Source: a virus. From it: a stretch of 64,000 bases of DNA. Under the pieces are notes generated by a model. The model did not search any database and had not been told where the DNA came from. It saw only the letters and a program-made list of their open reading frames with translations. A program made the position numbers and the translations under genes. Of the stretch, positions 1-64,000 are shown in pieces (the first letter of the stretch is position 1; each line of letters opens with the position of its first letter). The stretch is taken from IMG/VR virus record IMGVR_UViG_3300026484_000065, positions 9,471-73,470 of that record. One strand, given 5' to 3'.

Positions 1-1324
1 ACCAACTAATAAGCTTGCTATCTAAAATTACTTTATCAGCTGTTAAGCCTTTACTTGAATGAGCCGTAGATAGAACATATCTATGCTTTTCTTTTGTCTT
101 GAAAGCCTCAGACGCAATATCTTTCAGTATTACAAAATCTTCTATCTTTCTAGAGAAAGCTTGCTTTTTAAATATTGCATATTCTTCACTTTTTTCATAT
201 ACCTCATCAAGATAATCATAACAACTTTTATAATCCATTTTTAATAGTTGGGAGTTGTGGTACTCTTTAATATCTTCATTAAGATAAGACATGTCGCCAA
301 TAAGCTTGTTTGCTTTAGCACCAATTCCTCTAAAAGAGATATAGTCTTGAAATACAGCATCTAAATTTCTAGTGAGATTGAACTTTTTCCCTTCGCTTGT
401 CATACTTAGAACATAATTTGCTAGCTCATTATTTGTTCTTGTCAGTATTAATGTTGTATCTATAGAAGTATCTTCATGCTTAGTACCAACAAATACAAAG
501 TCGTCATCAAAGAAGTCCTTGCCAAAATCTTGAACAACAGTAGCTATTGCTTCGTTGCATCTGTATGACTTAGTTAGCTTTAAATGTGTACCAACATCAC
601 TATAAAATTTAAACATTGATTCTGTATGCATAAATCCAAATATCTCTTGGTTTTTATCTCCAACTACAATCTTCTGTTTTGCTTTTACATTTTCAAACAA
701 TATAGCTGTTGAACCAATAGCATCGTTAGCCTCATCAATAGCAAGAACATCTACTTCGTAATTAACTTGATTGCTTTGTACCAACAATGAAGCCCATTTA
801 AGATATCCATTATGACTAAAGGCCTTGTTGTCTAGCATGAAGTACATAATCTTTTTTAATGCATTTGAGTAATTACTTTTATTAGCTAGATTTTCAAACG
901 TATCAACAAAATCTTCAACTTTTTGTATAGATGATGCACAATATCTATCTAGCAAATCAATAAGAATATCTGTGTCTGTTTTTTTGCTATACACTTTTGA
1001 TAGATATATTATTTGCCTATTTGATTTAATCTCAATAGTACCAACAAATGCTCTAACTATTTCATAAGCCAATGAGTGAATTGTTCTTGGATCAACATTT
1101 GATGGCATTGCTTCAATTGCTTCTTTTTGTTGCATCTTACTAAAGACAATATATTTAAATGTTCTGTTTGGATTATCATTTGCAATCATTTTTAATGTCG
1201 TTGATTTAGCTGAACCAGCAACAGAATCAATAATAATTAACTCATCCCCACTTTTAAATGTATTTAAGATTGTTTGTTGTTCTTGTGATGGTACAAGTTT
1301 TATAGAATTTAACAGCTCATCCAT
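1..1324 (-). CDS. UvrD/Rep-like SF1 helicase (3' end runs off the window; not in ORF track)
   Basis: Hand translation from ATG 1324 (GGAG RBS): MDELLNSIKLVPSQEQQTIL...IDSVAGSAKST (Walker A), VLAIDEAND (Walker B), IVVGDKNQEIFGF, LTKSYRC. Confidence 0.88.
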   Translation of the reverse strand, partial: MDELLNSIKLVPSQEQQTILNTFKSGDELIIIDSVAGSAKSTTLKMIANDNPNRTFKYIVFSKMQQKEAIEAMPSNVDPRTIHSLAYEIVRAFVGTIEIKSNRQIIYLSKVYSKKTDTDILIDLLDRYCASSIQKVEDFVDTFENLANKSNYSNALKKIMYFMLDNKAFSHNGYLKWASLLVQSNQVNYEVDVLAIDEANDAIGSTAILFENVKAKQKIVVGDKNQEIFGFMHTESMFKFYSDVGTHLKLTKSYRCNEAIATVVQDFGKDFFDDDFVFVGTKHEDTSIDTTLILTRTNNELANYVLSMTSEGKKFNLTRNLDAVFQDYISFRGIGAKANKLIGDMSYLNEDIKEYHNSQLLKMDYKSCYDYLDEVYEKSEEYAIFKKQAFSRKIEDFVILKDIASEAFKTKEKHRYVLSTAHSSKGLTADKVILDSKLISW

Positions 1325-1388
1325 TAGCTTATTCTCCTGTGTTATATTTGACGTATATGGACTTTTAATCCATATACTATATTTGGTA

Positions 1389-2042
1389 CTACATTAAAGC
1401 TTTTGCAGCTTCAGCAGCAGCTGGTGATGCAGCAGTAGCAGTTGTAGTAGCTGATGCTTTATTGCCTTTTGCTTTCTTAACAAGTCTAGGTGTTTTCTCA
1501 AGTTTCTCTTTCCATTTAGCTAATGGTTCATCTGAATAGTTTCCATCTTTGTCTTTGATTTTGCCTTCAACATCAGCAAACCCTTCAATGTCATTGTATA
1601 CTTGGAATTGTTCTTTGTTTGGATCTTCAATTTCACGCACTAATACAAGAACAGGACGTCCCTCAAGACTTAATTTAGTTCCTTGTACTTTTTTACCATA
1701 CGCTTCAAATTCAGCTTGTGCAGTAGTGATTTGAGCTGGTTCCATATGTAATGCATCAACAAGTGCTTTGAAAGCTTTTGTACCACTCTTGTTCTCAGTT
1801 ACTTCATTAGTTTTTTTATCTACATACGATGTATTGAAATAGAATACTCTATCTTTCTTAGATGTTTCATCTGTAAGTTCAATTTTAAGCATCTTAGCTT
1901 TCTTCTCTGTTTCAAATACAGCAACTTCTTTGATAACCATTTTATAAGCACCTGACTCTAATACGCTTGATTCTCCTGCTGGTGCAGCAACTGTTTCTGT
2001 ATATGTCTCTTGGCTAATGCCCATTAAATTTAAAATATCCAT
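1389..2042 (-). CDS. ssb: single-stranded DNA-binding protein (N4 gp45-like)
   Basis: LESGAY N-terminal motif, OB-fold-like size, Ala/Thr-rich flexible C-tail, downstream of primase and Sak4 as in N4-like phages. Confidence 0.7.
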   Translation of the reverse strand: MDILNLMGISQETYTETVAAPAGESSVLESGAYKMVIKEVAVFETEKKAKMLKIELTDETSKKDRVFYFNTSYVDKKTNEVTENKSGTKAFKALVDALHMEPAQITTAQAEFEAYGKKVQGTKLSLEGRPVLVLVREIEDPNKEQFQVYNDIEGFADVEGKIKDKDGNYSDEPLAKWKEKLEKTPRLVKKAKGNKASATTTATAASPAAAEAAKALM

Positions 2043-2189
2043 TGGATTTCCTTTGTTTTTATGTTTTTATTTTTTGATTGGATTTACATTGGTTGTGTAC
2101 CAAATACCAAAATTGGGGTACAAATTGTACCAACTCTATACTTTAATCTGTATCAGATTTTTGGCACTTCTTGAAAAGAAGGAGTACCA

Positions 2190-2351: not shown

Positions 2352-2353
2352 TT

Positions 2354-3208
2354 CTATGCTCCCTTTTTAAATTGACAGATTTTTGATAATTCCTCAACAG
2401 TAACGTCAACATCAAAATCAAATTCCGATGGGTACGCTTCTGATAACAGATAATGCATAATCTTTATTTTCTCATTGAATGATGCTTTGTCTACGATATT
2501 TACAATTCCCCAGAATGTGTCGGCAACATAATCATTAATGTCATATAGTGCCAAAGCGCTATTGTAATCAACAATATACTCCACATTTGGACCTTCTTTT
2601 GGTTCACCACCATTTGCTATATATTCATCATATTTATCAAGCGTTGTTTTGATTGTTAACAAACCTGTTGAATATTTTACTTTATCAGTAACTTCTTCTG
2701 GAAGTCTCACAGCTTTTCTTTCTGATAATGTCTCTATATAATTATGAGTTATCGCATACTTGTTTTCACTTATTGTTTTTGCATAGCTTATATAATGTCT
2801 TTTAACTCCACTTTTAACTGCTGCCTGAGCAATGCTTAAATTGTGTCCAGCAACATATCTTCTGTAAGCTATAATTGCTTTCTGTGTTGTTGTTAGATCT
2901 TTGTTGATCATTTCTTTTGATGTTACAATGTCTTCAATGTCTTCTCTTGAATACACTGTCTTATCATATACATTTGCTTTTACTTTTAATCCCAATGCTA
3001 AACAAGCTTTACAGCGATGTCTTCCATCCATCAGTTTGCCATTATAGACTATTATATTTTCGAGTTGTCCATTTTCTTTTATTGAATTTGCTAATGCACG
3101 TATTGCGTCCTCGTTAATCGGAGTTATTTCAGCAACAGATTCATCTATATTTTCTAGCAGCAGCCTTGGGTCCAACTCTTCAACTACAATATTTGAGTTT
3201 TTTATCAT
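2354..3208 (-). CDS. ParB N-terminal domain protein (copy 1)
   Basis: LANSIKENGQLENIIVYNGKLMDGRHRCKAC = ParB/Srx arginine patch; DLTTTQKA followed by an HTH-like segment. Confidence 0.85.
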   Translation of the reverse strand: MIKNSNIVVEELDPRLLLENIDESVAEITPINEDAIRALANSIKENGQLENIIVYNGKLMDGRHRCKACLALGLKVKANVYDKTVYSREDIEDIVTSKEMINKDLTTTQKAIIAYRRYVAGHNLSIAQAAVKSGVKRHYISYAKTISENKYAITHNYIETLSERKAVRLPEEVTDKVKYSTGLLTIKTTLDKYDEYIANGGEPKEGPNVEYIVDYNSALALYDINDYVADTFWGIVNIVDKASFNEKIKIMHYLLSEAYPSEFDFDVDVTVEELSKICQFKKGA

Positions 3209-3316
3209 TTTTTTGATCCTTTTTTTTTATTATTAATATGGACAGTTTACACTGTTTAAATTTAAAATTGGCTTAATTATGTATCTTTCATTTCTTAAAA
3301 GATATCATGAAACCTC

Positions 3317-3686: not shown

Positions 3687-3716
3687 AGAAGCCTAGTGCT
3701 AACGATAAATATTCAC

Positions 3717-3787
3717 TCTCCCTTAATTAGTACCAAACATAAAAGTTGTTTAATTATTATTGTAGTGTTTGGTACTAATTAAGAGAG
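3717..3787. repeat. inverted repeat built on AGTACCAAACA/TGTTTGGTACT
   Basis: ctcccttaattagtaccaaaca ... tgtttggtactaattaagagag. Confidence 0.8.
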
Positions 3788-3820
3788 ATAAAAAGTTTTT
3801 CAAATCTAAAGTCATTTTTG

Positions 3821-3956: not shown

Positions 3957-4094
3957 AAGGGGTAGTGGGAAAGAGGGGGTTGTTAGTTTGGTACTCAATC
4001 AACCTATATCTTCCCTAGAATTAATTTTTTATCTAAAACGATAAATCTATCGAGAAGATATTTATCTTTCTTTCTAGGTACATTAGAATTAATC

Positions 4095-4544: not shown

Positions 4545-4548
4545 TTCT

Positions 4549-5277
4549 CTATGCTAAACCAAACTTCTTAGCAAGTTCTTTATCTTTAGCAAACAAAACA
4601 TCTTTATCTTCCCAATCAATCTTATTACCATTTAATCTATCAAAGATGAGAGATAAGTCATTGTTTGGTACTTTGTGAGGAAATAGCCCAAGAGGACTTC
4701 TTGCATTTGTATTTCTATTCTCTTGCCCTGGCTTTGTAACGAATCCGTACCCAACATAACTGCCAAATGGATTTGGTTCTGCTAAATCATATGTATATGT
4801 CTCTAATACAGTACCAAAGAAAGATTCTAATCCAAGCTTAGAAAGTGAACCTTTAACCATTCCTTTTTTCTTTCCACCTGTTTCATCATTTGTATGGATA
4901 AAGAAGATCCAATTCTTTTTACTTTTCAATCTTGCAAAATTCAATAGTTCTTTTCCCCATTGAGCATACAGCCCCCATGCAGCTCTAGTATCATCAGCTG
5001 TTAATACATGCATGCTCTCTAGCTGCTCAAACCAAAAGCTAAGGCTATCGATTACAATTGTTTGGTACTCACTCTCTTCAAACGCTTGTAGTGACTGAAT
5101 CACCTGAATGGGGTCCATCGGAATTATAAATTTCCCAAATTCATCTTGCATATTAAAATCCATCTCATTCTTCCCATCCGTAGAAATATAAATGATTGAT
5201 TTTAAATCCATATTTCTTAAACTCGCACTCTTCCCTGTTGAAGGCAAACCAGATACCATAATACAGTTCTTATTCAT
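4549..5277 (-). CDS. Sak4-like/AAA_24 ATPase (N4 gp44-like); start probably ATG 5277
   Basis: IMVSGLPSTGKSASLRN Walker A, TIVIDSLSF, LGLESFFGTVL, ARSPLGLF; AAGGAAG RBS before 5277. Confidence 0.85.
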   Translation of the reverse strand: MNKNCIMVSGLPSTGKSASLRNMDLKSIIYISTDGKNEMDFNMQDEFGKFIIPMDPIQVIQSLQAFEESEYQTIVIDSLSFWFEQLESMHVLTADDTRAAWGLYAQWGKELLNFARLKSKKNWIFFIHTNDETGGKKKGMVKGSLSKLGLESFFGTVLETYTYDLAEPNPFGSYVGYGFVTKPGQENRNTNARSPLGLFPHKVPNNDLSLIFDRLNGNKIDWEDKDVLFAKDKELAKKFGLA

Positions 5278-5389
5278 CTTTTTCTTCCTTTTACTAATTC
5301 TCTGTTTGTTTTGGTACATATTTTACATATACCATTTTCATTAACATCCTTTGTTGATGTACATATTTTGCAATTAACTTCTTTGTCCA

Positions 5390-7591
5390 TTAGTTCCTCC
5401 TAGCTATTGAAGTTACTTCTTTATCGCTCAACGGCTCAGAAAGTAGGTTATTTAGCTCAAACAGTACCAACTCAACATTATGTACTCCTATCTCCTCAAG
5501 AAGCTTCTTCGCAGAATATAGGTTACTATTTCTTGAACCTGTTGCTGTATTAACAACAAACCATTTCTTGATTCCTGCAACACGTCTTTCTACCTCATCT
5601 TCATAATCAACTCCAGAATCCATTAGTTTGTTAAGGATCTCTAATGCATGATTACCTTGTTCTGTTTCAGGTATAAACGCTTGAGCATTTAATTTTGTAC
5701 CAACATTAGTAAATACCTCAGCTTCTGGATTCGTGAACCAAAGTCTTGATATGTTGGTTGTAGCTTGGTCATATACCTTGAACCCAAAGAATTCAGCTAT
5801 ATTCTTATACATCTTCTTATGTTGTTCAGGATCTACATAATACTTATTTGTTGTTGGTACTAAAATACGAAATCTATCACCTTGCATTTCACCATTTTTT
5901 TCTTTTCTATGAGACCTTGTTGTGTAGATGATGTATGTATAGTCTTTTAAAAGCTCTCTAGCTTCTTTAAGGGTCATTCCATCATCTATATCGAATCCAA
6001 TTAGATTTTGTCCCTTAATAGCATTATCTGCCCTTCTATGACCTGCTCCCTGAGTAGTTGCAAGTTTCTCAGACATAGCTGTTGGTTCATACCATGATGT
6101 AGTAAAGCTTTTTGCTTTATTGGAACGTACCAAAGCTTCTATAGATGGAGCTTCTCCAAAGAAATTAACTTCCAATGGAAGAAAAGATGCAGATGCTTGA
6201 GGCTCTATCTTCTTTTGCTCATAATCATGAACATCGATTGAACAAATAATCTTATCCATCTCTGTTTTAGATGGTTCTTCCATATAGAAATATCTTGTAT
6301 TCTTTCCTGTAACATTAGGAACATAGCCTTTGTAATAAGCATAGTCTTTAAATAGCTCTATTGTCTCTTCACGTATTTGTTTGGTACTCCCCAGGTTAAC
6401 ACCATAAGAATCAAGCTCGTGTATAGACAATTTTCTCTTAGCCAATTTCAGAACATTGAATAAATCTTTATGAATACTTATTGGATTGATTATATTTGAG
6501 ATAGTCTCTCTTGACTCTTTAAAGATTGAATATGCAGATTCTAAATGCTCTAAAGTTAATGTCATTGAGCTATCAAGAATGCATAATAAGTGAGCTATAT
6601 TATCAATCATGTCAATTGAAGACACATCTATTGTTAACCACTTATCAGCAAGATTGTCATTTGCCTTGTCTATTAGTTCGTCTTGTATTGAAACAAGTCT
6701 TTCTTTATAATCTTGTTGGTGCCCAAACTCTAAAGCTTCTTTGTAGTTCTTTGTGTTTGATTTGATAATAGCTTTTATTGAATCTATATAGCTAAATAGC
6801 TCATTAAGTTCTTCTTCTTGCATCTCAACATTTTCACTGCTTTGACGTTCAATAGGTTTTGGCTCAAAGTTGAAGATTACAGATCTTCTGTATAGACCAG
6901 ATTCAAGAAGCTTGAGTAATTGTTCTTTATCTTTCTTTGATACACCAGCTTCAGAACCAAACAATAGTATATTTGTTGTAAGATTATCTACTTGAGGAGT
7001 GTTCTCAGATTTTGTTACTTTAGCTTTAATGGTACCATCATATGCTTCTTTCAGCTTATTCAAAGCTTCTGCTGAATTTGTAACAATATCACCAAGTTCA
7101 CTAACAGAAACATTGATGCTTGAAAATTGAGCAGCAGCAACTGCATATGATGTAGCAACAAAACCCTCTTTTGTACCCTCAATAGATACAGTTATATCTC
7201 TTGGAATATAATTCAACAAGGCATCTAAACCTTTCTTTTCTCCAAGAACAAAACTATTCTCAACTTCATGTTTTAATCTTTCATCACCTTCAACATTCGC
7301 AATCAATTCTTGTTTCATAGCTTCATGATATACAGTTCTGTTAAAGTTAAACACATCAGCAACAGTACCAAAACTAAAGTCCTTACCAAATCCACTTCCA
7401 GCAAGAGTTACACCAAAAAACTTTATATTCTTACCATTACTATTAAGTACCAAACCTGATGTTAAGTTTGCCAATATTGATGTATAAAACAATAATGGGT
7501 TTAGATAGATGTACCTATCTGATTTAAATTTACCTTGTATCTCAAGCTTATCAAGTATGTATTTTAAAGATTCTGTTTCTTTAATTTTCAT
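5390..7591 (-). CDS. DNA primase (N4 gp43-like; P-loop N-terminal domain plus C-terminal AEP/PriCT)
   Basis: LAGSGFGKD, HRRADN, FDIDDG, YTTRSH, DRFRILVP, GSRNSNL, PLSDKEV. Confidence 0.85.
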   Translation of the reverse strand: MKIKETESLKYILDKLEIQGKFKSDRYIYLNPLLFYTSILANLTSGLVLNSNGKNIKFFGVTLAGSGFGKDFSFGTVADVFNFNRTVYHEAMKQELIANVEGDERLKHEVENSFVLGEKKGLDALLNYIPRDITVSIEGTKEGFVATSYAVAAAQFSSINVSVSELGDIVTNSAEALNKLKEAYDGTIKAKVTKSENTPQVDNLTTNILLFGSEAGVSKKDKEQLLKLLESGLYRRSVIFNFEPKPIERQSSENVEMQEEELNELFSYIDSIKAIIKSNTKNYKEALEFGHQQDYKERLVSIQDELIDKANDNLADKWLTIDVSSIDMIDNIAHLLCILDSSMTLTLEHLESAYSIFKESRETISNIINPISIHKDLFNVLKLAKRKLSIHELDSYGVNLGSTKQIREETIELFKDYAYYKGYVPNVTGKNTRYFYMEEPSKTEMDKIICSIDVHDYEQKKIEPQASASFLPLEVNFFGEAPSIEALVRSNKAKSFTTSWYEPTAMSEKLATTQGAGHRRADNAIKGQNLIGFDIDDGMTLKEARELLKDYTYIIYTTRSHRKEKNGEMQGDRFRILVPTTNKYYVDPEQHKKMYKNIAEFFGFKVYDQATTNISRLWFTNPEAEVFTNVGTKLNAQAFIPETEQGNHALEILNKLMDSGVDYEDEVERRVAGIKKWFVVNTATGSRNSNLYSAKKLLEEIGVHNVELVLFELNNLLSEPLSDKEVTSIARRN

Positions 7592-8067: not shown

Positions 8068-8436
8068 TTAATAAATAGTATCCCATTCAATTTGGACAGC
8101 AGTAATATCTTTTGATTCCATTGTAGATGGAATATATACATATGGATTTAACTTATATACTAAAATATCTTCAACCTCTTTAACCTTTTTAATATAGTCC
8201 AATTCTTGGAATTTATCTAAAGTTTTAGATATTGTTTGATGGTTAACTTTTATATCTTTTGCAATCTCTGTTGGGTTCAGTGAAATAATTAGCTTATCCC
8301 TTGTAGCCATATCCATTAAAGCAAAAAATAATATTCTCTCATTCTTATTGTTCAGAGCCATTACTAATTTCTCTAAAGCATCTATGTTTGCAAAATCCCA
8401 ACCATCTTTAATAGTTGACTTAGTTTTCTTGTTCAT
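8068..8436 (-). CDS. RepL-like winged-HTH protein
   Basis: NPTEIAKDIKVNHQTISKTLDKFQELDYIKK...YKLNPYV resembles the plasmid RepL HTH and YxLNP motif. Confidence 0.65.
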   Translation of the reverse strand: MNKKTKSTIKDGWDFANIDALEKLVMALNNKNERILFFALMDMATRDKLIISLNPTEIAKDIKVNHQTISKTLDKFQELDYIKKVKEVEDILVYKLNPYVYIPSTMESKDITAVQIEWDTIY

Positions 8437-8490: not shown

Positions 8491-10302
8491 TTAAAATGGA
8501 ATATCTTCATCTTCTATGTCATCGTTGTCACTATTGTCTATAACACCCATATATCTTTTTTGTTCTTCAAGTTCATCAAGATATCTTTCTTCCAAGAACT
8601 CCAAAAAGAATGCCCATCCAAACATATTCTTGCCTTCCTTGATGATATTTGTGCCTCTTGTTTTTAAAGCCTTGAACCATCTTCTGTGTTGTCCATGGTA
8701 CTTATCCCAAATAGGCATCATTTTCTTAAAGAAGAAATTTGATGAAGGTTTATATTCATATCCATCTTTGTTCTTAGGCAATCCATTGATATACACATGA
8801 ATATCTATAAAAGCTTCAACAAGCACTTCTATATTTACTGTAGTTTTGTATACCTTAATAATATCAGCTATACGTTCTTGAGGATTCTTGATTCGTACAA
8901 TAGTATCATCTGTTTTTCTTTTTACAGTACCAACATGAACTTGTTCAACTTCTTCTTTCTTTTTGTATAACTCTTTCTCAAGCTCTTCAAGTCTAGCTAT
9001 GCGTTCATTGTACCAATCTCTACTTATCTCTTGTACCACAACATCTTTATCAATAAGTTCATCAAGATTGAGTAATGCTAATCTATCAACCTCTTTGGCA
9101 AGGTTTATTATGTTTTGTTCTCTATCTTCTGTTTTTGGTACTGGATTAAAGTCATCATAATAAAATCCAAATCTTGCAAAATTAGAACCACAATCAAGAA
9201 ATCTCTTAGTTTCGACCTTATCTGTTCTACGGAGATTTCTTCCCAAAATCTGTAGTTCTTTTGGTCTTGACCCTATTGATGTTGCAATAACTAAATCTTC
9301 AATCTCTGTGTCTGAGAAACCTGTTGATAATGCATTTACATTGACCAAGCATTTTACAGTGAATACATTATTTTCAAATTCAGGTAGTGCTTGCTGTGCT
9401 GAATTTGGATCAATATACTTTTCTTGATTGATAAATGATTTTAAAATTGCATCACGTTGTTTGTTTGGTACTTTTGAATGATATACCATAGAACTAAAAC
9501 CATTTGCTTGAAGTACCTCATTCAGTACCTCTGCTGTATGAATTGATGATGTAAACAATAATACTTTTCTGTCTTGCATATTCATATGCTTCATCGTATT
9601 AACAACATTGTTTATATATGTATCTTTTTCAATTATATTATTTAACTGGTATTTGTCAAAGTCTCCTGATGAAGTCACTTTGATATTATCAAAATCTAAT
9701 TTTTCAGCGAATGAAGCTACATATGTTTCAATGTTTGGATGCCAAACTGATTTAGCCATTTCTGCATTAGTCATTGTTTGAATTGTTTTGTAAACATTGT
9801 CTAATTGATAGCCAAATGCATTGTAGGGAGTACCTGTCATACCTATTCTAATGCTATATCCGAATTGCTTCTTAAGTTTATTGATAGTACCACCACTTGA
9901 GAACTTATGTATTTCATCTTGAATTATGATTGTTGGTACAAAATTCAAAGTACCCTTTTCAAGTCTTGATACAACAGATTGGAACATTCCTATTTGAATA
10001 TTGCAATTTTCACATTGGTTATCATACCCAGAAGCAATAACGCCTACTTCAAGGTTTATCAGTTTTGCTGTGTCAACAAATTGTTCTATCAAAGCTCTGA
10101 TTGGAAATACGATAAGCACTGTTTCAAACTCAGATAGCTTCTTTGCTATTTCAAGAATTGCTATGCTTTTCCCCCAGCTCACCTGAGCATCAAGGACAAT
10201 AGTGTCTCTCTTTTCCCCTTCAAGGTCTTGGGCAAACATTAAATCGTTGACTGCTTCAAGTACTTTGTCGACAGCTTCTTGTTGATATGGACGTAACTTC
10301 AT
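8491..10302 (-). CDS. SF2 (DExH, ResIII-like) helicase
   Basis: LRPYQQEA Q-motif, AQVSWGKS, IQDEIH, GMTGTP, LSTGFS, QILGRNLR. Confidence 0.92.
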   Translation of the reverse strand: MKLRPYQQEAVDKVLEAVNDLMFAQDLEGEKRDTIVLDAQVSWGKSIAILEIAKKLSEFETVLIVFPIRALIEQFVDTAKLINLEVGVIASGYDNQCENCNIQIGMFQSVVSRLEKGTLNFVPTIIIQDEIHKFSSGGTINKLKKQFGYSIRIGMTGTPYNAFGYQLDNVYKTIQTMTNAEMAKSVWHPNIETYVASFAEKLDFDNIKVTSSGDFDKYQLNNIIEKDTYINNVVNTMKHMNMQDRKVLLFTSSIHTAEVLNEVLQANGFSSMVYHSKVPNKQRDAILKSFINQEKYIDPNSAQQALPEFENNVFTVKCLVNVNALSTGFSDTEIEDLVIATSIGSRPKELQILGRNLRRTDKVETKRFLDCGSNFARFGFYYDDFNPVPKTEDREQNIINLAKEVDRLALLNLDELIDKDVVVQEISRDWYNERIARLEELEKELYKKKEEVEQVHVGTVKRKTDDTIVRIKNPQERIADIIKVYKTTVNIEVLVEAFIDIHVYINGLPKNKDGYEYKPSSNFFFKKMMPIWDKYHGQHRRWFKALKTRGTNIIKEGKNMFGWAFFLEFLEERYLDELEEQKRYMGVIDNSDNDDIEDEDIPF

Positions 10303-10345: not shown

Positions 10346-11086
10346 CTACATCAATAAGTTTTTAGTTGCAAAGTGATTGTTGGTACTATTTCTCTTTTTC
10401 CAGTACCCACACTTATCTCTCCAACCACAATAATATGCACATCTGTTTGGTTGCTTTTCTTTGTTTTTACCAAACTTCCAGATATCGCATTCTAATACTT
10501 CATCAGGATGCTCTATTAAATATTCAATCTCATTTGTTTTATCAATAATCATATCTTCAACCAAATCGAAATCATATGTTTCAATATCTACAAATGTATA
10601 TATATTCTTTAATACAGCAGAACCACCTTTGTTTAAAGCAAGTAGTTTGATTTGGTACTCTTCTCCAAGTTCTTTAAAAAGGAGATATCTATAGATATTT
10701 AATTGTGTTTCATAAGTACCAACATCACCAGATGCTACTTTTTTATAGCCTCCAGCAGACAATAACTTATAGTCATAGATAATCTTATCTTCGTGGTCAA
10801 TTAAATCAACTGTGCCCGTTATTGTCCAATTATTTACTTTGTGGCTGAGTGGTTTTTCTACCTCAAAACCATCCTTGCTTTTAAATATTTCCTCAAAGCC
10901 TTTATGAATAACAGAACCTAAAGTATTGTTACCAAATTCATCATCATCTGATGGGTCTCCATTCTTCCATCTCAATAAGAGCTGTTGATTTTCAAGGCCA
11001 AAAGATGATGCAGATAAAGACTTTGTGTGTTTTGGTACTCCATTATATTTAGTACCCTCTATAACTGCTTTGATTATTCGTTCCAT
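10346..11086 (-). CDS. PD-(D/E)XK Cas4-like exonuclease
   Basis: LSASS, GSVIHKGFE, TGTVDLID, YDYK, QLNIY, C-terminal RCAYYCGWRDKC. Confidence 0.85.
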   Translation of the reverse strand: MERIIKAVIEGTKYNGVPKHTKSLSASSFGLENQQLLLRWKNGDPSDDDEFGNNTLGSVIHKGFEEIFKSKDGFEVEKPLSHKVNNWTITGTVDLIDHEDKIIYDYKLLSAGGYKKVASGDVGTYETQLNIYRYLLFKELGEEYQIKLLALNKGGSAVLKNIYTFVDIETYDFDLVEDMIIDKTNEIEYLIEHPDEVLECDIWKFGKNKEKQPNRCAYYCGWRDKCGYWKKRNSTNNHFATKNLLM

Positions 11087-17255: not shown

Positions 17256-18440
17256 CTACAGAATATAATTACTTATTTTTTGAAGGAATGTCTTTTTGTC
17301 TTTGAAATCAACTTTCTCTAAAGCTTTCTCATCTTTCTTAGATAACTTGTATTTGGTACTATCAAATGTACCCATTAATTTCTCAAGCACAATTTGTTGC
17401 CCTTTGGTAATCTCTTCACCATTGACATTTTGAGAATATTTACTAGCCATTTCAGCAGACAAGAATCCAATAAACGTATCATTCTCATCTAATGCAGTAT
17501 TGATAAGATCAAGCATATATTTTGCATCTATAGGCTTAACTATATGATTAAAGATATATGAATATAAGATCTCATCAATAAAGTCCATGTCTTTGAAGTT
17601 TGGTACTATTTGTTTATTTACCTTTTCTTCAAAGTTGATAGAGTTAACATATTGCACATGTTTATTGAATTCTCTTGCAACATCATTAGACACAAAGCCT
17701 TTAGCAACCATATAAGCATTTTCACTAATAAATGCATTATCTAATGAATCTAGCATATTTGAAAAATATTCCCAGCTTCTTGGTGATGCTGAAGATTCAA
17801 GATCTTCTGTTTCTTCTTCGCTAATATAGCTTGGATTCTTTCTCACGAAAGATGAAACATACATATTTAGTTTGGCACCAAAATTATCAATCCAGTATTC
17901 GCTGTTTAACTCAACTTCAACTAGCTGCATTCTATCTTTAACTGGTGTATCCATTAACTGCATACCAGCAGCTTCACTATCATTCATAGTTAGTACAATA
18001 GCTACTTTATCGTGCAGCCTATATTGTCCCATACGTCTATCTAATAATAATTCGTATAGAACTGCTTGGGTAGATCTATTTACCTTATGAACATCATCTA
18101 GTAGTACCACACATCCACCATGCTTTTCAGCTTCAAGGTTAGCTCTAACAACTAATTCAGGAGCTGTCCACTCTGTAACCTTTGATTGTGTTAGTCCATC
18201 AATTTTGTATTTATTCAGTTCTTCTGCATCTACAAAATCTGGTAATCCTAAATAATATTGAATTCCTCGTGATGGCATAGATACTTCTACTGTTGGTACT
18301 CCTAATTCCTTAGCAATTGTTTTCACACTGCTTGATTTACCTAGTCCTGGCTTACTTTTTAAACAAATAGGCAGAACCTGTTTGTTATCTAATTGTGCTT
18401 TTACATTAGCTCTTAATAATTGCATTACCGTGTTATTCAT
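17256..18440 (-). CDS. MoxR-like AAA+ ATPase (N4 gp24-like)
   Basis: SKPGLGKSS, LLDDV, TQAVLYELLLDRRMG, SPRSWE. Confidence 0.88.
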   Translation of the reverse strand: MNNTVMQLLRANVKAQLDNKQVLPICLKSKPGLGKSSSVKTIAKELGVPTVEVSMPSRGIQYYLGLPDFVDAEELNKYKIDGLTQSKVTEWTAPELVVRANLEAEKHGGCVVLLDDVHKVNRSTQAVLYELLLDRRMGQYRLHDKVAIVLTMNDSEAAGMQLMDTPVKDRMQLVEVELNSEYWIDNFGAKLNMYVSSFVRKNPSYISEEETEDLESSASPRSWEYFSNMLDSLDNAFISENAYMVAKGFVSNDVAREFNKHVQYVNSINFEEKVNKQIVPNFKDMDFIDEILYSYIFNHIVKPIDAKYMLDLINTALDENDTFIGFLSAEMASKYSQNVNGEEITKGQQIVLEKLMGTFDSTKYKLSKKDEKALEKVDFKDKKTFLQKISNYIL

Positions 18441-18879
18441 TTGTTTCTCCTTGATTGTATAGTTTTAATAGCTCTTCAGCTTCTTTTGTTTCTTTATGAA
18501 AAATTAATTTCATCACATATGATTTGAATGTTTTATCTACTGTTGCGTAGTCTTTGTAGCTTACATTATCAAATGACTTCATTTTATTGATGTAAACAAT
18601 CATTAGTCTTAATGGGTACTTCAAGTAGGCTACGGCTTTAACTTTGTCTTTTACAAAATCAATTGTTTTATAGTTGTTGGTAAATATATTTTCTCTTGTA
18701 AAACCAAGTGACATATCAAATGAAGGACTATAAACTTTGTCTACTTTGTCAAATACGACTCTTTTTGTTTTATGTAATTTTGGATGTTTTGATAATTGTG
18801 TTTTTGAAGTTGTATTAAGGATGACTTCTTTTAGAGTTGCATACTCTAGTCCCGTCATAACTATTTGCTCATTATTCAT
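18433..18879 (-). CDS. hypothetical protein
   Basis: 148-aa ORF, translationally coupled on both sides. Confidence 0.7.
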   Translation of the reverse strand: MNNEQIVMTGLEYATLKEVILNTTSKTQLSKHPKLHKTKRVVFDKVDKVYSPSFDMSLGFTRENIFTNNYKTIDFVKDKVKAVAYLKYPLRLMIVYINKMKSFDNVSYKDYATVDKTFKSYVMKLIFHKETKEAEELLKLYNQGETNE

Positions 18880-19771
18880 TTGTTTCTCCTTTTAATTCTC
18901 TTTGTAATCTTTTACCTAATTTGCCCAATACATTTAAAGATTCTATAGCCTTGTCTAAATCTTCCAAAGTTATCTGTTTGTTTGATATATCTTCTAAATG
19001 CTCATTGATTTGATTGTGTATATTTTTAAATTGCATATGGTTCTCTCCCAAGTAGAGTCTGAATACCAATAGCATAGCTATCTGTCCATTTCTGAACGAT
19101 GTCTTTTTAAAGTCTAAGGTGTCTACTGTTAGATCTAAGGCTGCATGCACTTTGTTTGCAAATGTTTTATTTGCATCGCTAGTACAAAGTTTTAAATTCC
19201 ACGTAAACCACAAGGCACTTCTATATCCGCTATGGTAAAAAACCTTTTTATCCACTTTGCTCAACACTTTACTAATGTAATTGAATTGATCATATCTGTT
19301 TCTATGTTCTGTTTCAAGCTGGATATTGATGTTTCTATAGTACGTGCTTTTAAAATTAGTTAATCGAAGAATCAAAATACCTTTATTTACTGCATTTAAA
19401 AGAATATAGCTTTTATCATCTGTCAAATGTATACTTTTTACAAATTCTGCAATATCATCCAGCATACTAGCAAATTGATTGCGCATTACATGAGTTAAAA
19501 ATACTGTTTCTATTGTAAACGCATACTCATCTAATTGTCTTTTACTTAAAACATCAAAAGACATAATCTTTTTAGATATGGTATATTTATGCAAAGCATT
19601 GGCCATCAATTTATTCAATAATGTTGCTTTGTATAGAAGAGGTATTTCTTTGTCGTTATATTCATGTATTTCATTAAACAAAGATTTAACTTTGGGCCTA
19701 GTCAAAGGTTCATTGATTTTGTTCTCTAAAACTAAATAAACTAATCTATTAACTCTAAATTTCTTTTCCAT
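18872..19771 (-). CDS. hypothetical protein
   Basis: 299-aa ORF with AAGGAG RBS. Confidence 0.75.
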   Translation of the reverse strand: MEKKFRVNRLVYLVLENKINEPLTRPKVKSLFNEIHEYNDKEIPLLYKATLLNKLMANALHKYTISKKIMSFDVLSKRQLDEYAFTIETVFLTHVMRNQFASMLDDIAEFVKSIHLTDDKSYILLNAVNKGILILRLTNFKSTYYRNINIQLETEHRNRYDQFNYISKVLSKVDKKVFYHSGYRSALWFTWNLKLCTSDANKTFANKVHAALDLTVDTLDFKKTSFRNGQIAMLLVFRLYLGENHMQFKNIHNQINEHLEDISNKQITLEDLDKAIESLNVLGKLGKRLQRELKGETNE

Positions 19772-19878
19772 TTGTTTCTCCTTAAAATTTTTATTGTCTT
19801 ACATAGGACTCCAGCTAATACATCTGTATTGCTTTGCTTCAGCTTTTAACGTTAATCCAGCTTGGACGTATGATTAAG

Positions 19879-20469
19879 CTACATCAGCTTATTGAGCTTC
19901 TTCAGTGCCCTAAATATTTCAACTCTCGTTTTTTTATCACGTAATTCTTTTTTGTCCATAGACTTCATTGCTATCACAATGTTTTGATATCTATGTATAA
20001 TATCTTTGTCTTTATGGGTATCAAATATAAATAAGTTAATCTTTCTGTTGCTTACATCATAATAAATTAACAATTCTATGATATTGCGCCATTCTTTTCC
20101 TATTTTATCGTTGTTAATATTTTCATCTTTTGAATTAATTAAATCCACTATCAATATCTCTGATGGCACATTAGCAATAGTTACAGACTTTTTTAAACTA
20201 TGTGAAATAGCAGCAATTGAACCATAGGTATCCTTGTGTTGAACAGTATGATTTAAAATCTTGTTTTCTTTAGCATACTCTTTTATTATTGCTCTGCCAT
20301 TGTTTAGAAAGTCATATTTGGTTACATTATTAGACAATAATTTGCTAACATCATCACGACTTATTACAATATCGTAACCACTACTTTCAATCTCAACGCC
20401 AAGCGCTCTGCTTCCTATTAGTTCTCCACCGTTTGATAATAATTTTTCTACTGTCATCCTAGCTCCCAT
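19879..20469 (-). CDS. possible degenerate nucleotidyltransferase-like protein
   Basis: LIGSRALGVEIESSGYDIVI resembles the GS..DxD motif, with one Asp missing. Confidence 0.45.
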   Translation of the reverse strand: MGARMTVEKLLSNGGELIGSRALGVEIESSGYDIVISRDDVSKLLSNNVTKYDFLNNGRAIIKEYAKENKILNHTVQHKDTYGSIAAISHSLKKSVTIANVPSEILIVDLINSKDENINNDKIGKEWRNIIELLIYYDVSNRKINLFIFDTHKDKDIIHRYQNIVIAMKSMDKKELRDKKTRVEIFRALKKLNKLM

Positions 20470-20660
20470 AATGCTTCACACAATTCACTTGGTTCAAAGT
20501 ACCAACCATATGCATTTAATTGTTTATGCAATCTCTTAATATCTTCAACTACAGTTAAAGCATTAAGCTCTTCCAGAGCAAATCCAAGTTCACCACGAAG
20601 ACGTTTCTCGTAATCATATTCTTGTTTTACTTGGTACTCTTTTTCTTCTTTACAATCCAT
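20454..20660 (-). CDS. hypothetical protein
   Basis: 68-aa ORF with GGAG RBS. Confidence 0.6.
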   Translation of the reverse strand: MDCKEEKEYQVKQEYDYEKRLRGELGFALEELNALTVVEDIKRLHKQLNAYGWYFEPSELCEALWELG

Positions 20661-24331: not shown

Positions 24332-24423
24332 TCTCTACTCCTTAAAATTTGTACCAACATATACATAAAGATATATAAGTTATATTGGTACTGTTTGACT
24401 TTATTAAACCATCTCTTTACTCA

Positions 24424-25158
24424 TCATCTTCGACGGAATTTAAAATTGGCCAGATCGCCAAGCATATTTAATAATAAAAGATCATTTGTTAAACCAAGTG
24501 ATTTTCTTGTATTTAACTGTTCGTAGAACCAATCTTTTCCTGCTTGTGTTTTTATCTTTGCATTTACATCGTATCCATATTCTTCTTTTGGCTTCTTGAC
24601 TTTCTCTTCCAGTCTTTTAAGATGTGCATATACAGCAGATACTTTAGAAGATGCAACCTCTTTTCCATCTTTGTTCACTATCTCTACAGCCATACCGTCA
24701 AATAAAGCCTGTGCAATGAATTTATCATGTTCCCAGATATATTTAGCATTTTTAAACAAGCCTTCGCTTATGGACCAGCTAGCAGCTATATCAGATGCTT
24801 TTCTGTTATCTATCTTGTCTATTTTTGATTTTGCACCAGACATTGCTTTTTGAGTTATAGTAAGATTTCTTCTTGTGTTTACTGATTTAACAAAAGCAAT
24901 AACTTCTTTTTCTGTTAAGTCCTCATCTAATTCCTTATAATCTATTGACCATCCAAGAGATTCGAGTGCTTTTAATCTACATCTACCATCTACGACTTTC
25001 CCTCTCCACAGAACTATAGGTTCTCTTTGTTGGTTCAATCTTATATCTTCTGTTAATGCAGCCTGTTCTTCTGGTGTAGCCATAGGAACTAATCCTGCAA
25101 GTTCGTGGTTTATAATGAACTTTTCTTCATTTGGCAATCTCTTTTTTATAATATTCAT
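24424..25158 (-). CDS. ParB N-terminal domain protein (copy 2)
   Basis: HELAGLVPM, LTEDIRLNQQREPIVLWRGKVVDGRCRLKAL, NTRRNLTITQKAM. Confidence 0.88.
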   Translation of the reverse strand: MNIIKKRLPNEEKFIINHELAGLVPMATPEEQAALTEDIRLNQQREPIVLWRGKVVDGRCRLKALESLGWSIDYKELDEDLTEKEVIAFVKSVNTRRNLTITQKAMSGAKSKIDKIDNRKASDIAASWSISEGLFKNAKYIWEHDKFIAQALFDGMAVEIVNKDGKEVASSKVSAVYAHLKRLEEKVKKPKEEYGYDVNAKIKTQAGKDWFYEQLNTRKSLGLTNDLLLLNMLGDLANFKFRRR

Positions 25159-25784: not shown

Positions 25785-25942
25785 TTTATTTCCCCTATAT
25801 AAATTTTTATCTCCAATACATCTAAATGTACCAATAAAGATATATCTTCATGATTTGATACCTTAGAATTAATTCTATAACCTATCAATTAGTACCAACA
25901 ATATCATTCTATAAAGAGTAGTTATGTTTGGTACTCAATCAA

Positions 25943-26728: not shown

Positions 26729-26933
26729 AATCTACTCCTTTGGATTGTTTGTTTGGTACTTAATTAGAATAACCCATATCTTCTCTACAAGAGAACTTTG
26801 TACCAATACAATAAAAACATATGTATAGAGATATATCTTTGCTGTTTTGATACTTAAGAATTAATTTAATAAGGTATAGATAATCTAGTACCAAACAATA
26901 CAGATAGGTTAGTTTTGTTTGGTACTAGATTAA

Positions 26934-27698
26934 TTATAATTTATTTTTGATTTCTTCAAAAGCACTTTTGATTAGATTCATAAGCTCATTAATATCGCCA
27001 ACAAACATTTTTACAAGCTCATTATCAAACTTATATTTGTAAAATACATATCCTGCAAGAAGCTTGTAGGTATATTCATAGAATTCTGGCTCTCTTAATT
27101 GATTGGTTTTAATTAGGTTTGAAGCATAATTGAATATTATTTCATTTACAATAACTACATTCATAAACTCATTTGTTGTATCGTAAAACACTCCTTTGCA
27201 ATGTCTTTTATTTTTGCCGTAGTACATATCATAAATAATTTGCGGTTCTTTTATTTTGTTACTAAATACCAATAAATCTTTTATGTTTCCGCCTTCTCTC
27301 TTGTCGATTAACTTTACAACATCATTTAAATTCTGCACAGCATACATATTAAGTTCGTGCCCAAGTTCTAAATAAATATCATATATAATATCTCTTGATA
27401 CATAATTCTCTTTTAAGAGCTTTATTTGTTCATCTGTAATGTTTTTATAATTCATTAAGAACACATCATACAAGACTGTAAAAGTTGTAGAGAATTCTTC
27501 ATTTAAAAGCTCTATTTCTTTTATCTCTTTTGATTTTTTGATGACAGAATATATTCCTATAAGTATATTGAATTTAGCATGTTCATCATAATTTTGATAC
27601 TTGGAGTAATTTAACTTTTTCAAGATGTGCCCTAATTCTACTCTTGTTCTGGTGTGACGAACGCCTTCCAGGAAAGACATTAGCTGTAGTTCATTCAT
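26934..27698 (-). CDS. hypothetical protein, tandem paralog B
   Basis: Paralog of 25943..26728; AAGGA RBS. Confidence 0.8.
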   Translation of the reverse strand: MNELQLMSFLEGVRHTRTRVELGHILKKLNYSKYQNYDEHAKFNILIGIYSVIKKSKEIKEIELLNEEFSTTFTVLYDVFLMNYKNITDEQIKLLKENYVSRDIIYDIYLELGHELNMYAVQNLNDVVKLIDKREGGNIKDLLVFSNKIKEPQIIYDMYYGKNKRHCKGVFYDTTNEFMNVVIVNEIIFNYASNLIKTNQLREPEFYEYTYKLLAGYVFYKYKFDNELVKMFVGDINELMNLIKSAFEEIKNKL

Positions 27699-53686: not shown

Positions 53687-53691
53687 GAGCA

Positions 53692-55962: not shown

Positions 55963-55963
55963 A

Positions 55964-58900: not shown

Positions 58901-61900
58901 TCTAGTACCAAATCAAAAAGAACTCAGATTCAAGAAGAGATGAAGAAAGAGGCTGTAGATAATAAAGATAACATTAGTACCAACAATAATAAAAAAGATG
59001 TTCCTAGTAACGTAGTTCGTATTGGTGGAAATATTGCAACAAATGGAGTTAAGAAGAATGGTGAATCTGTAATCTATCAACTTGATGGCCACAACAAAAA
59101 CAAAGTTTATAAAGAGGCTACATATCAAGATGTTGTTGATACTTTAGTTGGTACTGATTATAAAGACTCAGCTGGTATGATTCTTGGCAATATCTTTAAT
59201 TTTAAAACAAAGAGCGGTAAGAATTTAAGAGAAGCAGCTTACTTTATTGATGAGTCTGGAATTGGAAGAACTTTTATTAAATTTGGCTCACACTACTATT
59301 CAATAACTGGCTTCAACAAAGATACTAAAAGATTTGAATTCCACAGATATACAAATAAAAGCGGAAAAGAACAACTCACAGACAAAAACTTTAAGTATAT
59401 AGATTTAACTAATCTGTTTAGCAAAAAGCAAAACGAAACAATTTCCGTAAGAGATGGTTCACACAAAATAGTTGATAGCTTAATGGAAGTTAAACAAGAC
59501 AAAAACGCTGAAACCAAGAAAGAGCCTAAAACAGAAACAAGACCTGAATCTGAACCTAAACCTGAAACAGATAAGTCTACGTCAAGCAAAGAATCTACTG
59601 GCAATGAAGACACTAACAAAGAAGCTAAGCAAGGAAAAGAGGAAGAAAAGAAACCTGCTCAAGAGAAACAAGATAAACAGAATGCAGAATCAGAGTCTAT
59701 CAAGGAAGAAGATGATGAAATAAAGATTGAGACAGAACCTACAAAACAAGAGTCTAAACAAGAGCCTATTGTGGTTTCAGAATCTAGTACCAACAAATAC
59801 AATAAGACGATAGAGCACATAAACAATATTATTAACAATAATACTGAAAGTGAATATGGAAAGATATCTTTCATTCAAAAATCTATTGAATCGTTAAAGG
59901 CTTTCCTGAAAAGCAAAACTAAATTTCAAGACCTTAATGCCAAAGATAAAAAATCAAATATTGATTTTAATACCCTAACAAATGGATTAAGCAAGAAAGA
60001 TGTAAACAGACTGCTTGACATTCTATATACGTTTAAAGACAACAATGTTGGTACTGCTAAAGAAGCTAAACAGTTTAACAATGAACTATATGAAGAGTTT
60101 GTGAGACTGAAAAATAAGACATCGAAGAAAAGCAGTAGGCTATCGACTTTTATAGATAGTGTTGCAAGCTCGACTACTATATCTGATTCTATGAAGGTTC
60201 TAAAAGAATCTATCGAAGAATATGTTGGGAACAAACTTCCGCAATTTGCTGGAGCTAAGCTTGGTGAAAAAGAAGTATTTGATTTGAGAGATGAACGTGC
60301 CTTTGAAGAGTTTATTAAAGAATACGTCCAATTTGATTCTATGAAACTAGAAGAAAAGCTTGAAGTATTAGCTAATTTAGATAACTTAGTTGTTATTGCT
60401 AAAATAAATTATATGATTGATAGTGGACTTATTGGTGATAAATCTTTTATTGGCTTATTATCTAAGTACCAAAACATACTAAGAGCCGAAGAAAACACTC
60501 CATATGTGTTAAAAGAAGATGGAACTGTTGAAACTGATTATCATGGAAACAAATTAGCTTTTATATCTTTTGCCAATTCTCCAAAGAATGATGATGGCAA
60601 AGTTAACTTTATGGTTAAAGCCAAAAAGATTAAAGAAAAAACTCTAAACATTTTCAATGGTCTTGTTTCTGCTGAAACAAAAGATGATGTCCTTACAGTA
60701 CCAAACATAAAAGAAAATCTAAAAACACTTGTTGATGATGACACTATTAATATAATGAAAGACACAATCAAGGACAATTTGTTCACTAGTGGAATATTTT
60801 TAGCATCAAGCAATGTTGCTCCATTGAAAACATTATTCGATGCTAGTTCTGGAAAAGGTTTTGTTATCACTGACAAAAACCCACTACATAAAATCATTAA
60901 CAATATGAGTTTGGAATTATTATCGAATATGTCATCTAGTACCAAACAAGATGAAAATAGCTTAGCTAGAATTCTAGGTCTTGATGGGTTTGAAGAAGTT
61001 GATTCTGCTAAATACAATGAATTCTATTCAGACTTATATAGGTTCAATAAAGAAGAAAGAACATTTGTTGGTACTGAGGAAATTAAAAGAATTGGCTCAA
61101 TGGTTGCAGATGTTGCAGGTATAGAATTAAATCTTAAAAATGCAACAAACATTGAATCTGAGAATATTTTTCATACGTCATTAGGTATGTTGGTACTAGA
61201 TAGATTAATTAGTACTGGAATAGTTAAGGCTGAGAATGTCGTATCAAATTATAGTGGTCAGTCGTACAGAACAATTATTATTCAAAATAGTATTTTTAAA
61301 GAAAATACAAAAGTTGTGTCTGCTATTGCAAAAACAGCAAATAGATATGCTGAGGTAAAAGAGCCTATTTTTGAACAAAATGAACAAGAACATGAAATTT
61401 TAGAACCAAAGCAAAAAGGAATGACTAAATTTCCTAAGAATTCATCAACTTATAAAGATGCAAAGAGAAAGTCAAATAAGCCTTACTATGCAAATAAGTT
61501 TTTTACTAGACTATTCACAAAAGGTGGAGATAGTGTTAATGAGGAGGCAAAAGAGAATCTTATGATAGCATCTGGCGCATATACTGATGAAGAAATAGAT
61601 GATATCGATAACCTAAGAATAGAACAATATATTCAGAAAAAAGGAAAATCTGATACTGTAGCTGAATTCTTCAATGTGATAGATGAATATGCATCTGAAC
61701 TAAATGAAGCATCAATGTCAGTGCCAGAAGCACAAAGACTAAAGATTTTCCTTAGACATGTAATAACTTCAACAGGAAGATTGTATGTTGACAGCAAACT
61801 TGATATTTATTCAAATAAAGTTCATAGATCAATATTAGCAGCCGAAGACGATCTTGAGTTCACATTAACTAAAGATAATTTTGAAACAATGATGCTTGGT

Positions 61901-64000: not shown

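Follow-up and report, generated by a model that had tools for sequence, protein, structure and literature searches.

Dispersed, selected words of cellular genomes, among them Chi, uptake sequences, FtsK-orienting polar sequences (KOPS) and HIP1, have each revealed a DNA-reading machine. A 64,000-base stretch of viral DNA raises the question of whether a virus lineage can own such a signal and, if so, what reads it. The stretch, called the window here, comprises bases 9471–73470 of the 73,470-base virus record IMGVR_UViG_3300026484_000065 (G000), which is rated 95% complete and whose source is probably a hydrothermal vent metagenome. The heptamer TGGTACT, or its complement AGTACCA, recurs throughout it as part of a short word present at about 3 copies per kb. 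We found that this word is a phage-lineage-specific, selected, dispersed signal that is read strand by strand; it belongs to the virus lineage and not to the hosts, and its spelling drifts between phages whose bacterial hosts are unrelated. This suggests a phage-encoded reader that has not been described, with an enzyme that starts new DNA strands as the likeliest candidate.

Abundance and shape of the word

TGGTACT/AGTACCA was present 140 times in the window (81 copies on the plus strand and 59 on the minus strand), against an expectation of 5.92 (standard deviation 2.39, maximum 12), and none of 100 dinucleotide-preserving shuffles reached 140. The whole record held 160 copies, and four copies of the word read backwards. 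A sequence-only reading of the window had listed ten copies in the first 5 kb, where it expected about 0.5; all ten are exact matches, and the shuffles gave about 0.46. The word and the sites concerned are as follows:

1..64000, both strands: dispersed word, 140 TGGTACT/AGTACCA sites
258..264, plus strand: TGGTACT site
482..488, minus strand: TGGTACT site
1037..1043, minus strand: TGGTACT site
1384..1390, plus strand: TGGTACT site
2183..2189, minus strand: TGGTACT site
3729..3735, minus strand: TGGTACT site, left arm of the long intergenic hairpin 3716..3790
3770..3776, plus strand: TGGTACT site, right arm of the same hairpin
3989..3995, plus strand: TGGTACT site
4666..4672, plus strand: TGGTACT site
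4810..4816, minus strand: TGGTACT site
18294..20499: longest stretch without the core TGGTAC, 2,205 bases

The core TGGTAC occupied 202 sites in the window, and the longer forms, which the same reading had called frequent, amounted to 109 copies of TTGGTACT, 58 of TTTGGTACT and 35 of GTTGGTACT. Maximal-order Markov scores placed the excess on GTAC, then on GGTAC and then on GGTACT, in keeping with the earlier remark that GTAC is mostly embedded in GGTAC or GTACC (260 of 315 GTAC sites in the window). Extension of the word was followed over the whole record with first-order expectations, giving 237 copies of TGGTAC (17.7 expected), 177 of TTGGTAC (6.1 expected), 128 of TTGGTACT (2.4 expected) and 68 of TTTGGTACT (0.8 expected). 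The fuller consensus was K-T-TGGTAC-T with a T-rich 5' flank: the position before the heptamer was T at 128 of the 160 sites, the two positions before that were T or G, and the flank was T-rich over about nine bases at coding and non-coding sites alike.

One-base variants of TGGTACT were mostly at or below expectation, with TGGGACT at 0.2, TCGTACT at 0.4 and TGCTACT at 0.5 times the expected number. The exceptions were changes at the first and last positions, GGGTACT reaching 7 times and TGGTACA, TGGTACC and TGGTACG 6 to 8.5 times expectation. The distribution was not that of a palindromic site: the record contained 160 copies of TGGTACT and 22 of TGGTACC, and the TGGTTC and TGGCTT of relatives are non-palindromic, the exceptions being the uncultured genome G030 and Acinetobacter phage Presley, both described below. 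The palindromic full form TGGTACCA was found nine times in the window.

The three ORFs of the word-free stretch (open reading frames at 18433–18879, 18872–19771 and 19879–20469) had no match in PHROG; the stretch may be recently acquired DNA.

Independence from coding

Synonymous codons were shuffled within each of 72 ORFs, which make up 91% of the record, so that protein sequence and codon usage were preserved. The shuffled ORFs contained 21.1 ± 4.0 copies (maximum 31 in 100 shuffles), and the real ones 131. The sequence-only reading had staked its proposal on shuffles of this kind, and the enrichment persisted in both (131 vs 21.1 ± 4.0 for codons, 140 vs 5.92 for dinucleotides). Codon choice does not, therefore, explain the word. 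The distribution over strands, reading frames and intergenic gaps was also as described: all six frames were occupied by the heptamer (sense 6, 11 and 47; antisense 24, 16 and 27), the core was equally frequent in sense and antisense orientation (102 each), and 30 of the 160 sites lay at least partly outside ORFs, in 6,596 non-coding bases, which corresponds to a 2.3-fold higher density.

Some intergenic copies form inverted repeats with the word in both arms:

3716..3790, minus strand: intergenic inverted repeat, 23-bp stem, −31.2 kcal/mol, z −9.4
26874..26940, minus strand: intergenic inverted repeat, 18-bp stem, −27.6 kcal/mol, z −8.2

Both are perfect repeats in the minus-strand early/middle region, with the word central in each arm, and weaker word-bearing repeats were seen at 25880–25946 and 24340–24403. 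Pairs of the complement followed by the word, 26–47 bases apart, numbered 11, against a rough estimate of about 3.6 expected. Candidate roles of these hairpins are terminator, operator or cruciform.

A word family across N4-like phages

The phage is N4-like (Schitoviridae in the wide sense), as it carries the virion RNA polymerase (phrog_2206, E 2.2e-68), the portal (phrog_1216), a capsid protein 27–29% identical to N4-like capsids, and replication genes of the gp43 and gp44 type. Its nearest cultured phages are N4-like, with only 23–29% protein identity. Because all matches in phage records fell below 60% identity, it would, judged from its sequence, be a member of no named genus.

In the complete genome of N4, TGGTTC was present 220 times (35.9 expected), with C preceding it at 110 of the 220 sites and a mean spacing of 316 bases, near that of the window phage. 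The codon shuffle gave 72.6 ± 7.3 copies against 211 in N4, and the sense and antisense counts were 117 and 94. The other isolates were examined over stretches of 41–48 kb. Related words were enriched in Pseudomonas phages Zuri (TTGGTTC, 63 vs 6.7 expected) and LIT1 (TTGGCTT, 60 vs 4.5), Vibrio phage phi50-12 (TTGGTTA, 59 vs 8.7), Achromobacter phage Axy22 (TGGTTC, 95 vs 26) and Ruegeria phage V21 (TGGTTC, 90 vs 30), and Escherichia phage ShWW44 contained 137 copies of TGGTTC in 47.8 kb. Instead of a TGG-type word, 41 kb of Presley showed the palindromes CTGCAG (108 vs 18) and CACGTG (54 vs 10.5), and no strong word was evident in 41 kb of Pseudoalteromonas phage pYD6-A. A TGG-type word was thus found in seven of nine isolates, one had other words and one had none. 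In T7, taken as an outside control, no hexamer exceeded about 3-fold.

The palindromes of Presley could reflect a changed reader, or an economical placement of one site on both strands. In the complete N4 sequence, the sister word TGGATC was present 0 times (33.6 expected), which suggests that N4 strongly avoids GATC; TGGTTC is 6-fold up there.

Uncultured relatives were drawn from IMG/VR by alignment of the portal (80 related loci). Among the 47 of these that were 8 kb or longer, an unbiased k-mer screen singled out the two nearest long contigs. Complete records were read next, and further loci were screened by alignments of the ParB-like protein and the nuclease introduced below. Strongly enriched words were the following (observed vs expected):

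G001, 71.8 kb: TTGGTTCT 96 vs 3.3; TTGGTACT 53 vs 2.0
G002, 37.5 kb: TTGGTTCT 85 vs 1.7
G026, 113 kb: TTGGTTC 167 vs 11
G030, 91 kb: TGGATC 184 vs 31, including the palindromic TGGATCCA 62 vs 1.8; also TTGGTTCT
G035, 100 kb: CTGGTACT 106 vs 1.2
L110, fragment, 57% G+C: GTGGTTC 40 vs 1.7
L163, 19.5 kb read of a 73.7-kb contig: CTGGTTCT 11 vs 0.4

The spellings in distant relatives included TTGGTTCT, TGGATC(C/T), CTGGTACT and GTGGTTCC. Five further genomes (G003, G016, G028, G031 and G033) had just a 3- to 7-fold excess of GATGGT(A) or TTGGTA. Since the proteins of the relatives are only 22–64% identical to those of the window phage, the word has outlived almost all sequence similarity. The family spans 26% to 57% G+C and different hosts. 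The word is therefore a family trait, roughly TGG-W-W-C across the N4-like lineage, with lineage-specific spellings. Together with these spellings it provides a simple signature for recognizing and sub-typing N4-like contigs in metagenomes, and it is a constraint to respect in recoding N4-like phages. A search of the openly available literature brought up no account of the word; an earlier mention elsewhere, as in subscription papers on N4 replication or in supplements, is possible.

G030 differed in having word-free gaps of 5.6–6.2 kb and over-dispersed spacing. Its primase homolog (L134 7451–10069; 873 residues) has matches to Hint/intein-splicing families and probably contains an intein.

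Absence of the word from hosts

A 50-kb piece of the E. coli K-12 genome contained 17 copies of TGGTTC (25 expected), and Chi, the positive control, 14 (1.7 expected). For the window phage, the closest cellular matches to its NrdA (46–47% identity) were in one Sulfurimonas and one Campylobacterota genome. This is a weak pointer, from sequence, to a Campylobacterota host lineage, which would fit the vent habitat and the low G+C. In these two genomes TTGGTAC was near its control count (194 vs 174 in 1.7 Mb and 406 vs 390 in 2.0 Mb), or about 0.1 per kb compared with 2.4 per kb in the phage. The word is thus phage-specific and not enriched in the host and candidate host-lineage genomes examined, and it discriminates phage from host about 9-fold for N4 against E. 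coli and about 20-fold for the window phage against Campylobacterota. A mutational bias shared with the host, which the sequence-only reading had named as the other way in which its proposal could fail, was not seen in E. coli (for N4) or in the two Campylobacterota genomes.

These counts bear on the possibility that the signal is derived from the host, whether as its Chi, as an uptake sequence, as a word of chromosome architecture or as a decoy for a GTAC-specific enzyme of the host. Formally the distribution is like that of DNA uptake sequences (DUS), uptake signal sequences (USS) and HIP1, with both orientations, all frames, intergenic inverted pairs, AT-rich flanks and lineage "dialects". 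Those words, however, belong to cellular genomes and follow the host, whereas the phage word follows the phage lineage across hosts: no enrichment of the uptake-sequence kind was found in the E. coli piece or in the Sulfurimonas and Campylobacterota genomes, and the same core is shared by phages that infect E. coli, Pseudomonas, Vibrio, Achromobacter and Ruegeria and by uncultured phages of 26–57% G+C. Nor does the phage word behave like a host Chi, being neither enriched in the E. coli piece and the two Campylobacterota genomes nor skewed in orientation in six phage genomes. The decoy, one of the earlier suggestions, fares no better, as the GTAC palindrome gives way in relatives to the non-palindromic TGGTTC or TGGCTT. 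A host-derived signal is therefore largely refuted, and we regard it as very improbable.

Selection on density and strand-wise use

Over 31.5 kb of alignment between N4 and ShWW44 (72% identical), 36 of 101 aligned N4 sites were intact, compared with 18.6% of all hexamers, 19.2% of composition-matched controls and 16.7% of local same-frame controls. About two thirds of the N4 sites had moved in ShWW44 with density unchanged. As sites turn over at constant density, their number counts more than their place. Across ten genomes the density was 1.5–3.4 strand-sites per kb, despite different spellings and 28–56% G+C, and the mean per-strand gap was 540–1,786 bases. The sequence-only reading had inferred a selected dispersed signal of the Chi, DUS or HIP1 type, and this view is upheld by survival of the enrichment in codon shuffles, by the maintenance of density with turnover, and by the word family in distant relatives; the signal is in fact stronger than that reading had supposed.

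When both strands were pooled, spacing in the window phage was near exponential (mean 306, coefficient of variation 1.03), and pooled positions in the ten genomes were near Poisson (mean z 0.04). By contrast, the per-strand coefficient of variation of the gaps was below that of strand-label shuffles in 10 of 10 genomes, so that same-orientation sites repel each other. The result was still 10 of 10 with sites within 12 bases of another dropped (Fisher combined p 5.6e-6), and switches of orientation between neighbors exceeded expectation in nine of the ten. Since strand labels are not exchangeable, an orientation-blind duplex binder does not fit; a signal acting on each strand by itself would give such a pattern.

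No positional switch of orientation was found in six genomes, including records with terminal repeats, and orientation was unrelated to transcription. Because of this and of the equal sense and antisense counts (102/102 here, 117/94 in N4), an RNA-level signal, or a terminator or pause site for T7-like phage RNA polymerases, was rejected. A uniform whole-genome strand bias of about 60:40, independent of gene orientation, was seen in N4 (90 vs 130), G026 (96 vs 143) and G035 (90 vs 56); a favored direction of replication is a possible cause. DNA gyrase sites were also considered and rejected, the word being a sharp hexamer, whereas the gyrase motif mapped in E. coli is long (about 130 bp) and degenerate (PMC6379681).

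The phage primase-helicase as candidate reader

The genes of the window that bear on the identity of the reader are listed here; functions are assigned from sequence matches.

5390..7591, minus strand: primase-helicase of the N4 gp43 (dns) type, phrog_2135, E 1.6e-56
4549..5319, minus strand: Sak4-like single-stranded DNA-annealing protein, N4 gp44 type
8491..10302, minus strand: SF2 helicase (ResIII/DEAD, RadD-like); RadD in a PDB sequence search
10346..11086, minus strand: Cas4/RecB-like PD-(D/E)XK nuclease with C-terminal cysteines
2354..3208, minus strand: ParB-like protein, paralog 1, DGRHR motif
24424..25158, minus strand: ParB-like protein, paralog 2

We favor, at a probability of about 0.4, the explanation that the word is the template recognition word of the phage's own gp43-type primase-helicase, priming being absent from the candidates of the sequence-only reading. 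The gp43/dns-type enzyme, with an archaeo-eukaryotic primase (AEP) core and a PriCT-1 helical domain, would start RNA primers solely opposite the word. By chance a word of 6–8 bases would occur about once per 8 kb per strand in an AT-rich genome; selection would have brought this up to roughly one per 600 bases, evenly spread on each strand, and either strand could then act as the lagging-strand template in recombination-dependent replication. As a side effect, priming would be limited to phage DNA. We infer the primase as the reader, and its action on a single-stranded template, alongside what was observed directly, namely enrichment, independence from coding, conservation with drifting spelling, absence from hosts, turnover at constant density and per-strand regularity. 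In a wider form, which is possible yet doubtful, the AEP/PriCT-1 primase-helicases of N4-like phages would use a private "priming code", starting lagging strands only at the 6–8-base word, on genomes rewritten in all frames and blind to host DNA, with the spelling (TAC, TTC, ATC or CTT) co-evolving with the enzyme from N4 to vent phages.

Several observations are consistent with a primase. The word is short and asymmetric, lies on both strands and has a spacing near that of Okazaki fragments; its similar density despite different spellings would give fragment lengths of plausible Okazaki size. The retention of the word family over 26–57% G+C and different hosts fits a conserved phage-encoded reader with drifting specificity. 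The gp43-type primase was found in every word-bearing genome tested, that is, in five of five word-rich uncultured genomes by all-against-all BLAST and in eight of eight isolates by tblastn (N4 complete and about 41 kb from each of the other seven, six of these eight carrying a TGG-type word). Of six replication or DNA-binding proteins tested with tblastn, only this primase and the gp44-type Sak4 were present in all eight isolates; no match was obtained there for the nuclease, the SF2 helicase, the single-stranded DNA-binding (SSB)-like protein, the second helicase (genome 9352–10794) or either ParB-like protein. With tblastn the primase matched 469 phage records, and those listed were N4-like. 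Its PHROG matches were to primase and primase-helicase families, PriCT_1 was recognized in three of six aligned homologs (best E 9.7e-5; only E 0.18 for the member in this phage), and one aligned family member matched DUF3987. An AEP-like core is predicted from catalytic motifs read by eye in the sequences.

Primases that recognize short template words are known. The gene 4 primase of T7 uses TGGTC, GGGTC and GTGTC, and the AEP primase of pRN1 recognizes a template triplet. The phage word resembles the T7 words in being short and asymmetric, in occurring on both strands and in sharing TGGT, and T7 primase reads a single-stranded template. The asymmetric 5' flank is T/G-rich at coding and non-coding sites of the window phage, and a T-rich flank is also seen in N4; the same bias is described for T7, where G/T-rich flanks are reported to raise primase binding (PMC6136900). 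The candidate here is, however, an AEP/PriCT-1 protein and not of the DnaG-type zinc-finger kind.

A number of points weigh against the primase. The enzyme is found with and without the word, so that specificity must be supposed to differ: the word-poor G003, G028, G031 and G033 carry gp43-family primases, pYD6-A has the primase and no strong word, and Presley has it together with palindromic words that would better suit a dimeric duplex binder. Shared ancestry confounds the association, as all core genes of the lineage are found along with the word. Six to eight bases is long for a primase recognition word, and strong enrichment is not general for such words, those of T7 being only 1.4- to 1.7-fold up, compared with 6- to 50-fold here. 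No strand bias of the fixed-origin kind was seen, and the literature search found no biochemistry linking gp43 to any sequence. An AlphaFold2 model of the primase from a six-sequence alignment was too poor to use (mean predicted local distance difference test score 49.9), and a PDB sequence search with the primase gave chance matches only, near E 1.

Alternative readers

A phage-private analog of Chi, that is, a directional recombination or nuclease-control signal read by a travelling helicase-nuclease or recombinase, is unlikely, though far from negligible. Candidate readers would be the SF2 helicase and Cas4/RecB-like nuclease of the window phage and, in N4, the gp42 exonuclease, the gp37 helicase and the gp44 Sak4-type protein; the frequent words would halt degradation and load recombinase on phage DNA. 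Like the Chi sites of RecBCD and AddAB, the word is dispersed, over-represented and read strand-wise, word and flank are G/T-rich, both orientations are evenly covered, and density rather than position is selected as sites turn over. When five word-rich and four word-poor uncultured genomes were compared by all-against-all BLAST of their ORFs, the Cas4-like nuclease was present in 5/5 and 0/4, the SF2 helicase in 5/5 and 1/4, and the SSB-like and Sak4-like proteins in 4/5 and 0/4, respectively. A sixth nuclease-bearing genome, L163, is word-rich too, and the Sak4-type protein occurs in all eight isolates. This contrast rests, however, on nine phylogenetically clustered genomes, and the nuclease and SF2 helicase are missing by tblastn from the eight isolates, six of which have the word. 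Unlike Chi, the word belongs to a virus lineage instead of a bacterial species, is absent from the host genome and shows no replication-linked skew of orientation, or any orientation pattern relative to genome ends in records with terminal repeats; at one site per 300 bases it is some 15 times denser than Chi in E. coli. Slightly less probable still, in our estimate, is a site for a duplex-DNA-binding protein that marks, coats or organizes the genome, by ParB-like spreading in the window phage and through another protein in N4. The phage has two ParB-like paralogs, the first being the best-conserved non-structural protein between G000 and G001 (39% over 281 residues), additional copies are present in G026 and G030, the word is denser between genes, and palindromic forms recall parS and Noc-type sites (TGGATCCA in G030, the nine copies of TGGTACCA in the window and the Presley palindromes). 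Yet most words are asymmetric with strand labels that cannot be exchanged, 20 of 26 ParB-like loci lack a strong TGG-type word, and all four word-poor genomes have a ParB-like protein. No Pfam ParB model reached E 0.01, and the PDB profile match to ParB was only E 0.05. With no ParB-like protein in N4 or the 41-kb stretches of seven isolates (six of these eight with the word), a ParB loading site, as the sequence-only reading had suggested, does not account for the word; neither the ParB-like proteins nor a GTAC decoy are supported as general readers.

Some phosphorothioate motifs have a G-W-W-C shape. The core of the word shares it, and the word separates phage from host, as would suit a site where a sequence-specific enzyme modifies or nicks phage DNA and so labels it as self. 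We consider this rather improbable: scans with PHROG (50 ORFs) and Pfam (20 ORFs) revealed no methyltransferase, Dnd/Ssp-type, deazaguanine or hydroxymethylase gene (the one resembling thymidylate synthase is ThyX), and none is listed in the N4 annotation. In addition, the change of GTAC to GTTC or GCTT in relatives is not that of a restriction-modification site, and a target alone does not explain the benefit of more sites. We give still less credence to a functionless drive, such as mismatch repair or gene conversion with a bias for the word, in the manner of very-short-patch repair, or a hotspot of polymerase errors. In its favor, several one-base neighbors of the heptamer are depleted, and per-base identity within N4 sites (0.70–0.77) is barely above that of the flanks; but whole N4 sites are kept twice as often as controls, and neither even per-strand spacing nor similar density over different spellings and base compositions is expected from drive. 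A shared polymerase bias is unlikely as well, since N4 has the gp39 polymerase, which by blastp matched only G003, G028 and, weakly, G031, and gave no match in G000, G001, G026, G030 or G035. Two RNA polymerases were also considered as readers. The virion enzyme was rejected: it is reported to initiate on denatured N4 DNA only at its three hairpin promoters (PMC4496689). N4 RNAPII is unlikely, as blastp found no homolog of gp15 or gp16 in G000, G001, G026 or G030. What probability remains belongs to something we have not thought of.

If the primase-helicase is the reader, a long primase word would, for the first time, be seen to have driven the recoding of a whole genome, and replication would have a new means of telling self from non-self; if the reader is another, the word is the mark of a new DNA-reading system in a phage family that is widespread. 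N4, with its 220 copies, is a model phage studied for about 60 years (its isolation was reported in 1967) and is easily manipulated in E. coli K-12, which makes the question directly testable.

Other features of the genome

Two further features of the window, a loader candidate and the gene that leaves its end, are:

8068–8436: DnaD-like loader candidate
55964–64000: virion RNA polymerase, giant ORF leaving the window end and resuming at the record start (L009 24–3554)

The scans identified in addition a large terminase, an SSB-like protein, two helicases, a Holliday-junction resolvase, ribonucleotide reductase and ThyX, together with an AAA ATPase and a vWA protein, as in N4 gp24/25. No tRNA gene was found in the window, nor did the PHROG scans (50 ORFs) reveal a DNA polymerase gene; perhaps the word-rich uncultured clade relies on the host DNA polymerase. 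Single-protein scans for close relatives found none for the primase in viral contigs and none for NrdA in genomes, and alignment-based searches found them.

The contig ends interrupt the virion RNA polymerase gene, so that the record is permuted or broken inside the gene and has no natural end there. The small subunit of ribonucleotide reductase is split into two ORFs (L009 3998–4405 and 4721–5401) that lie about 315 bases apart and match adjoining parts of the family profile; an intron, some other insertion or a frame break may account for the split.

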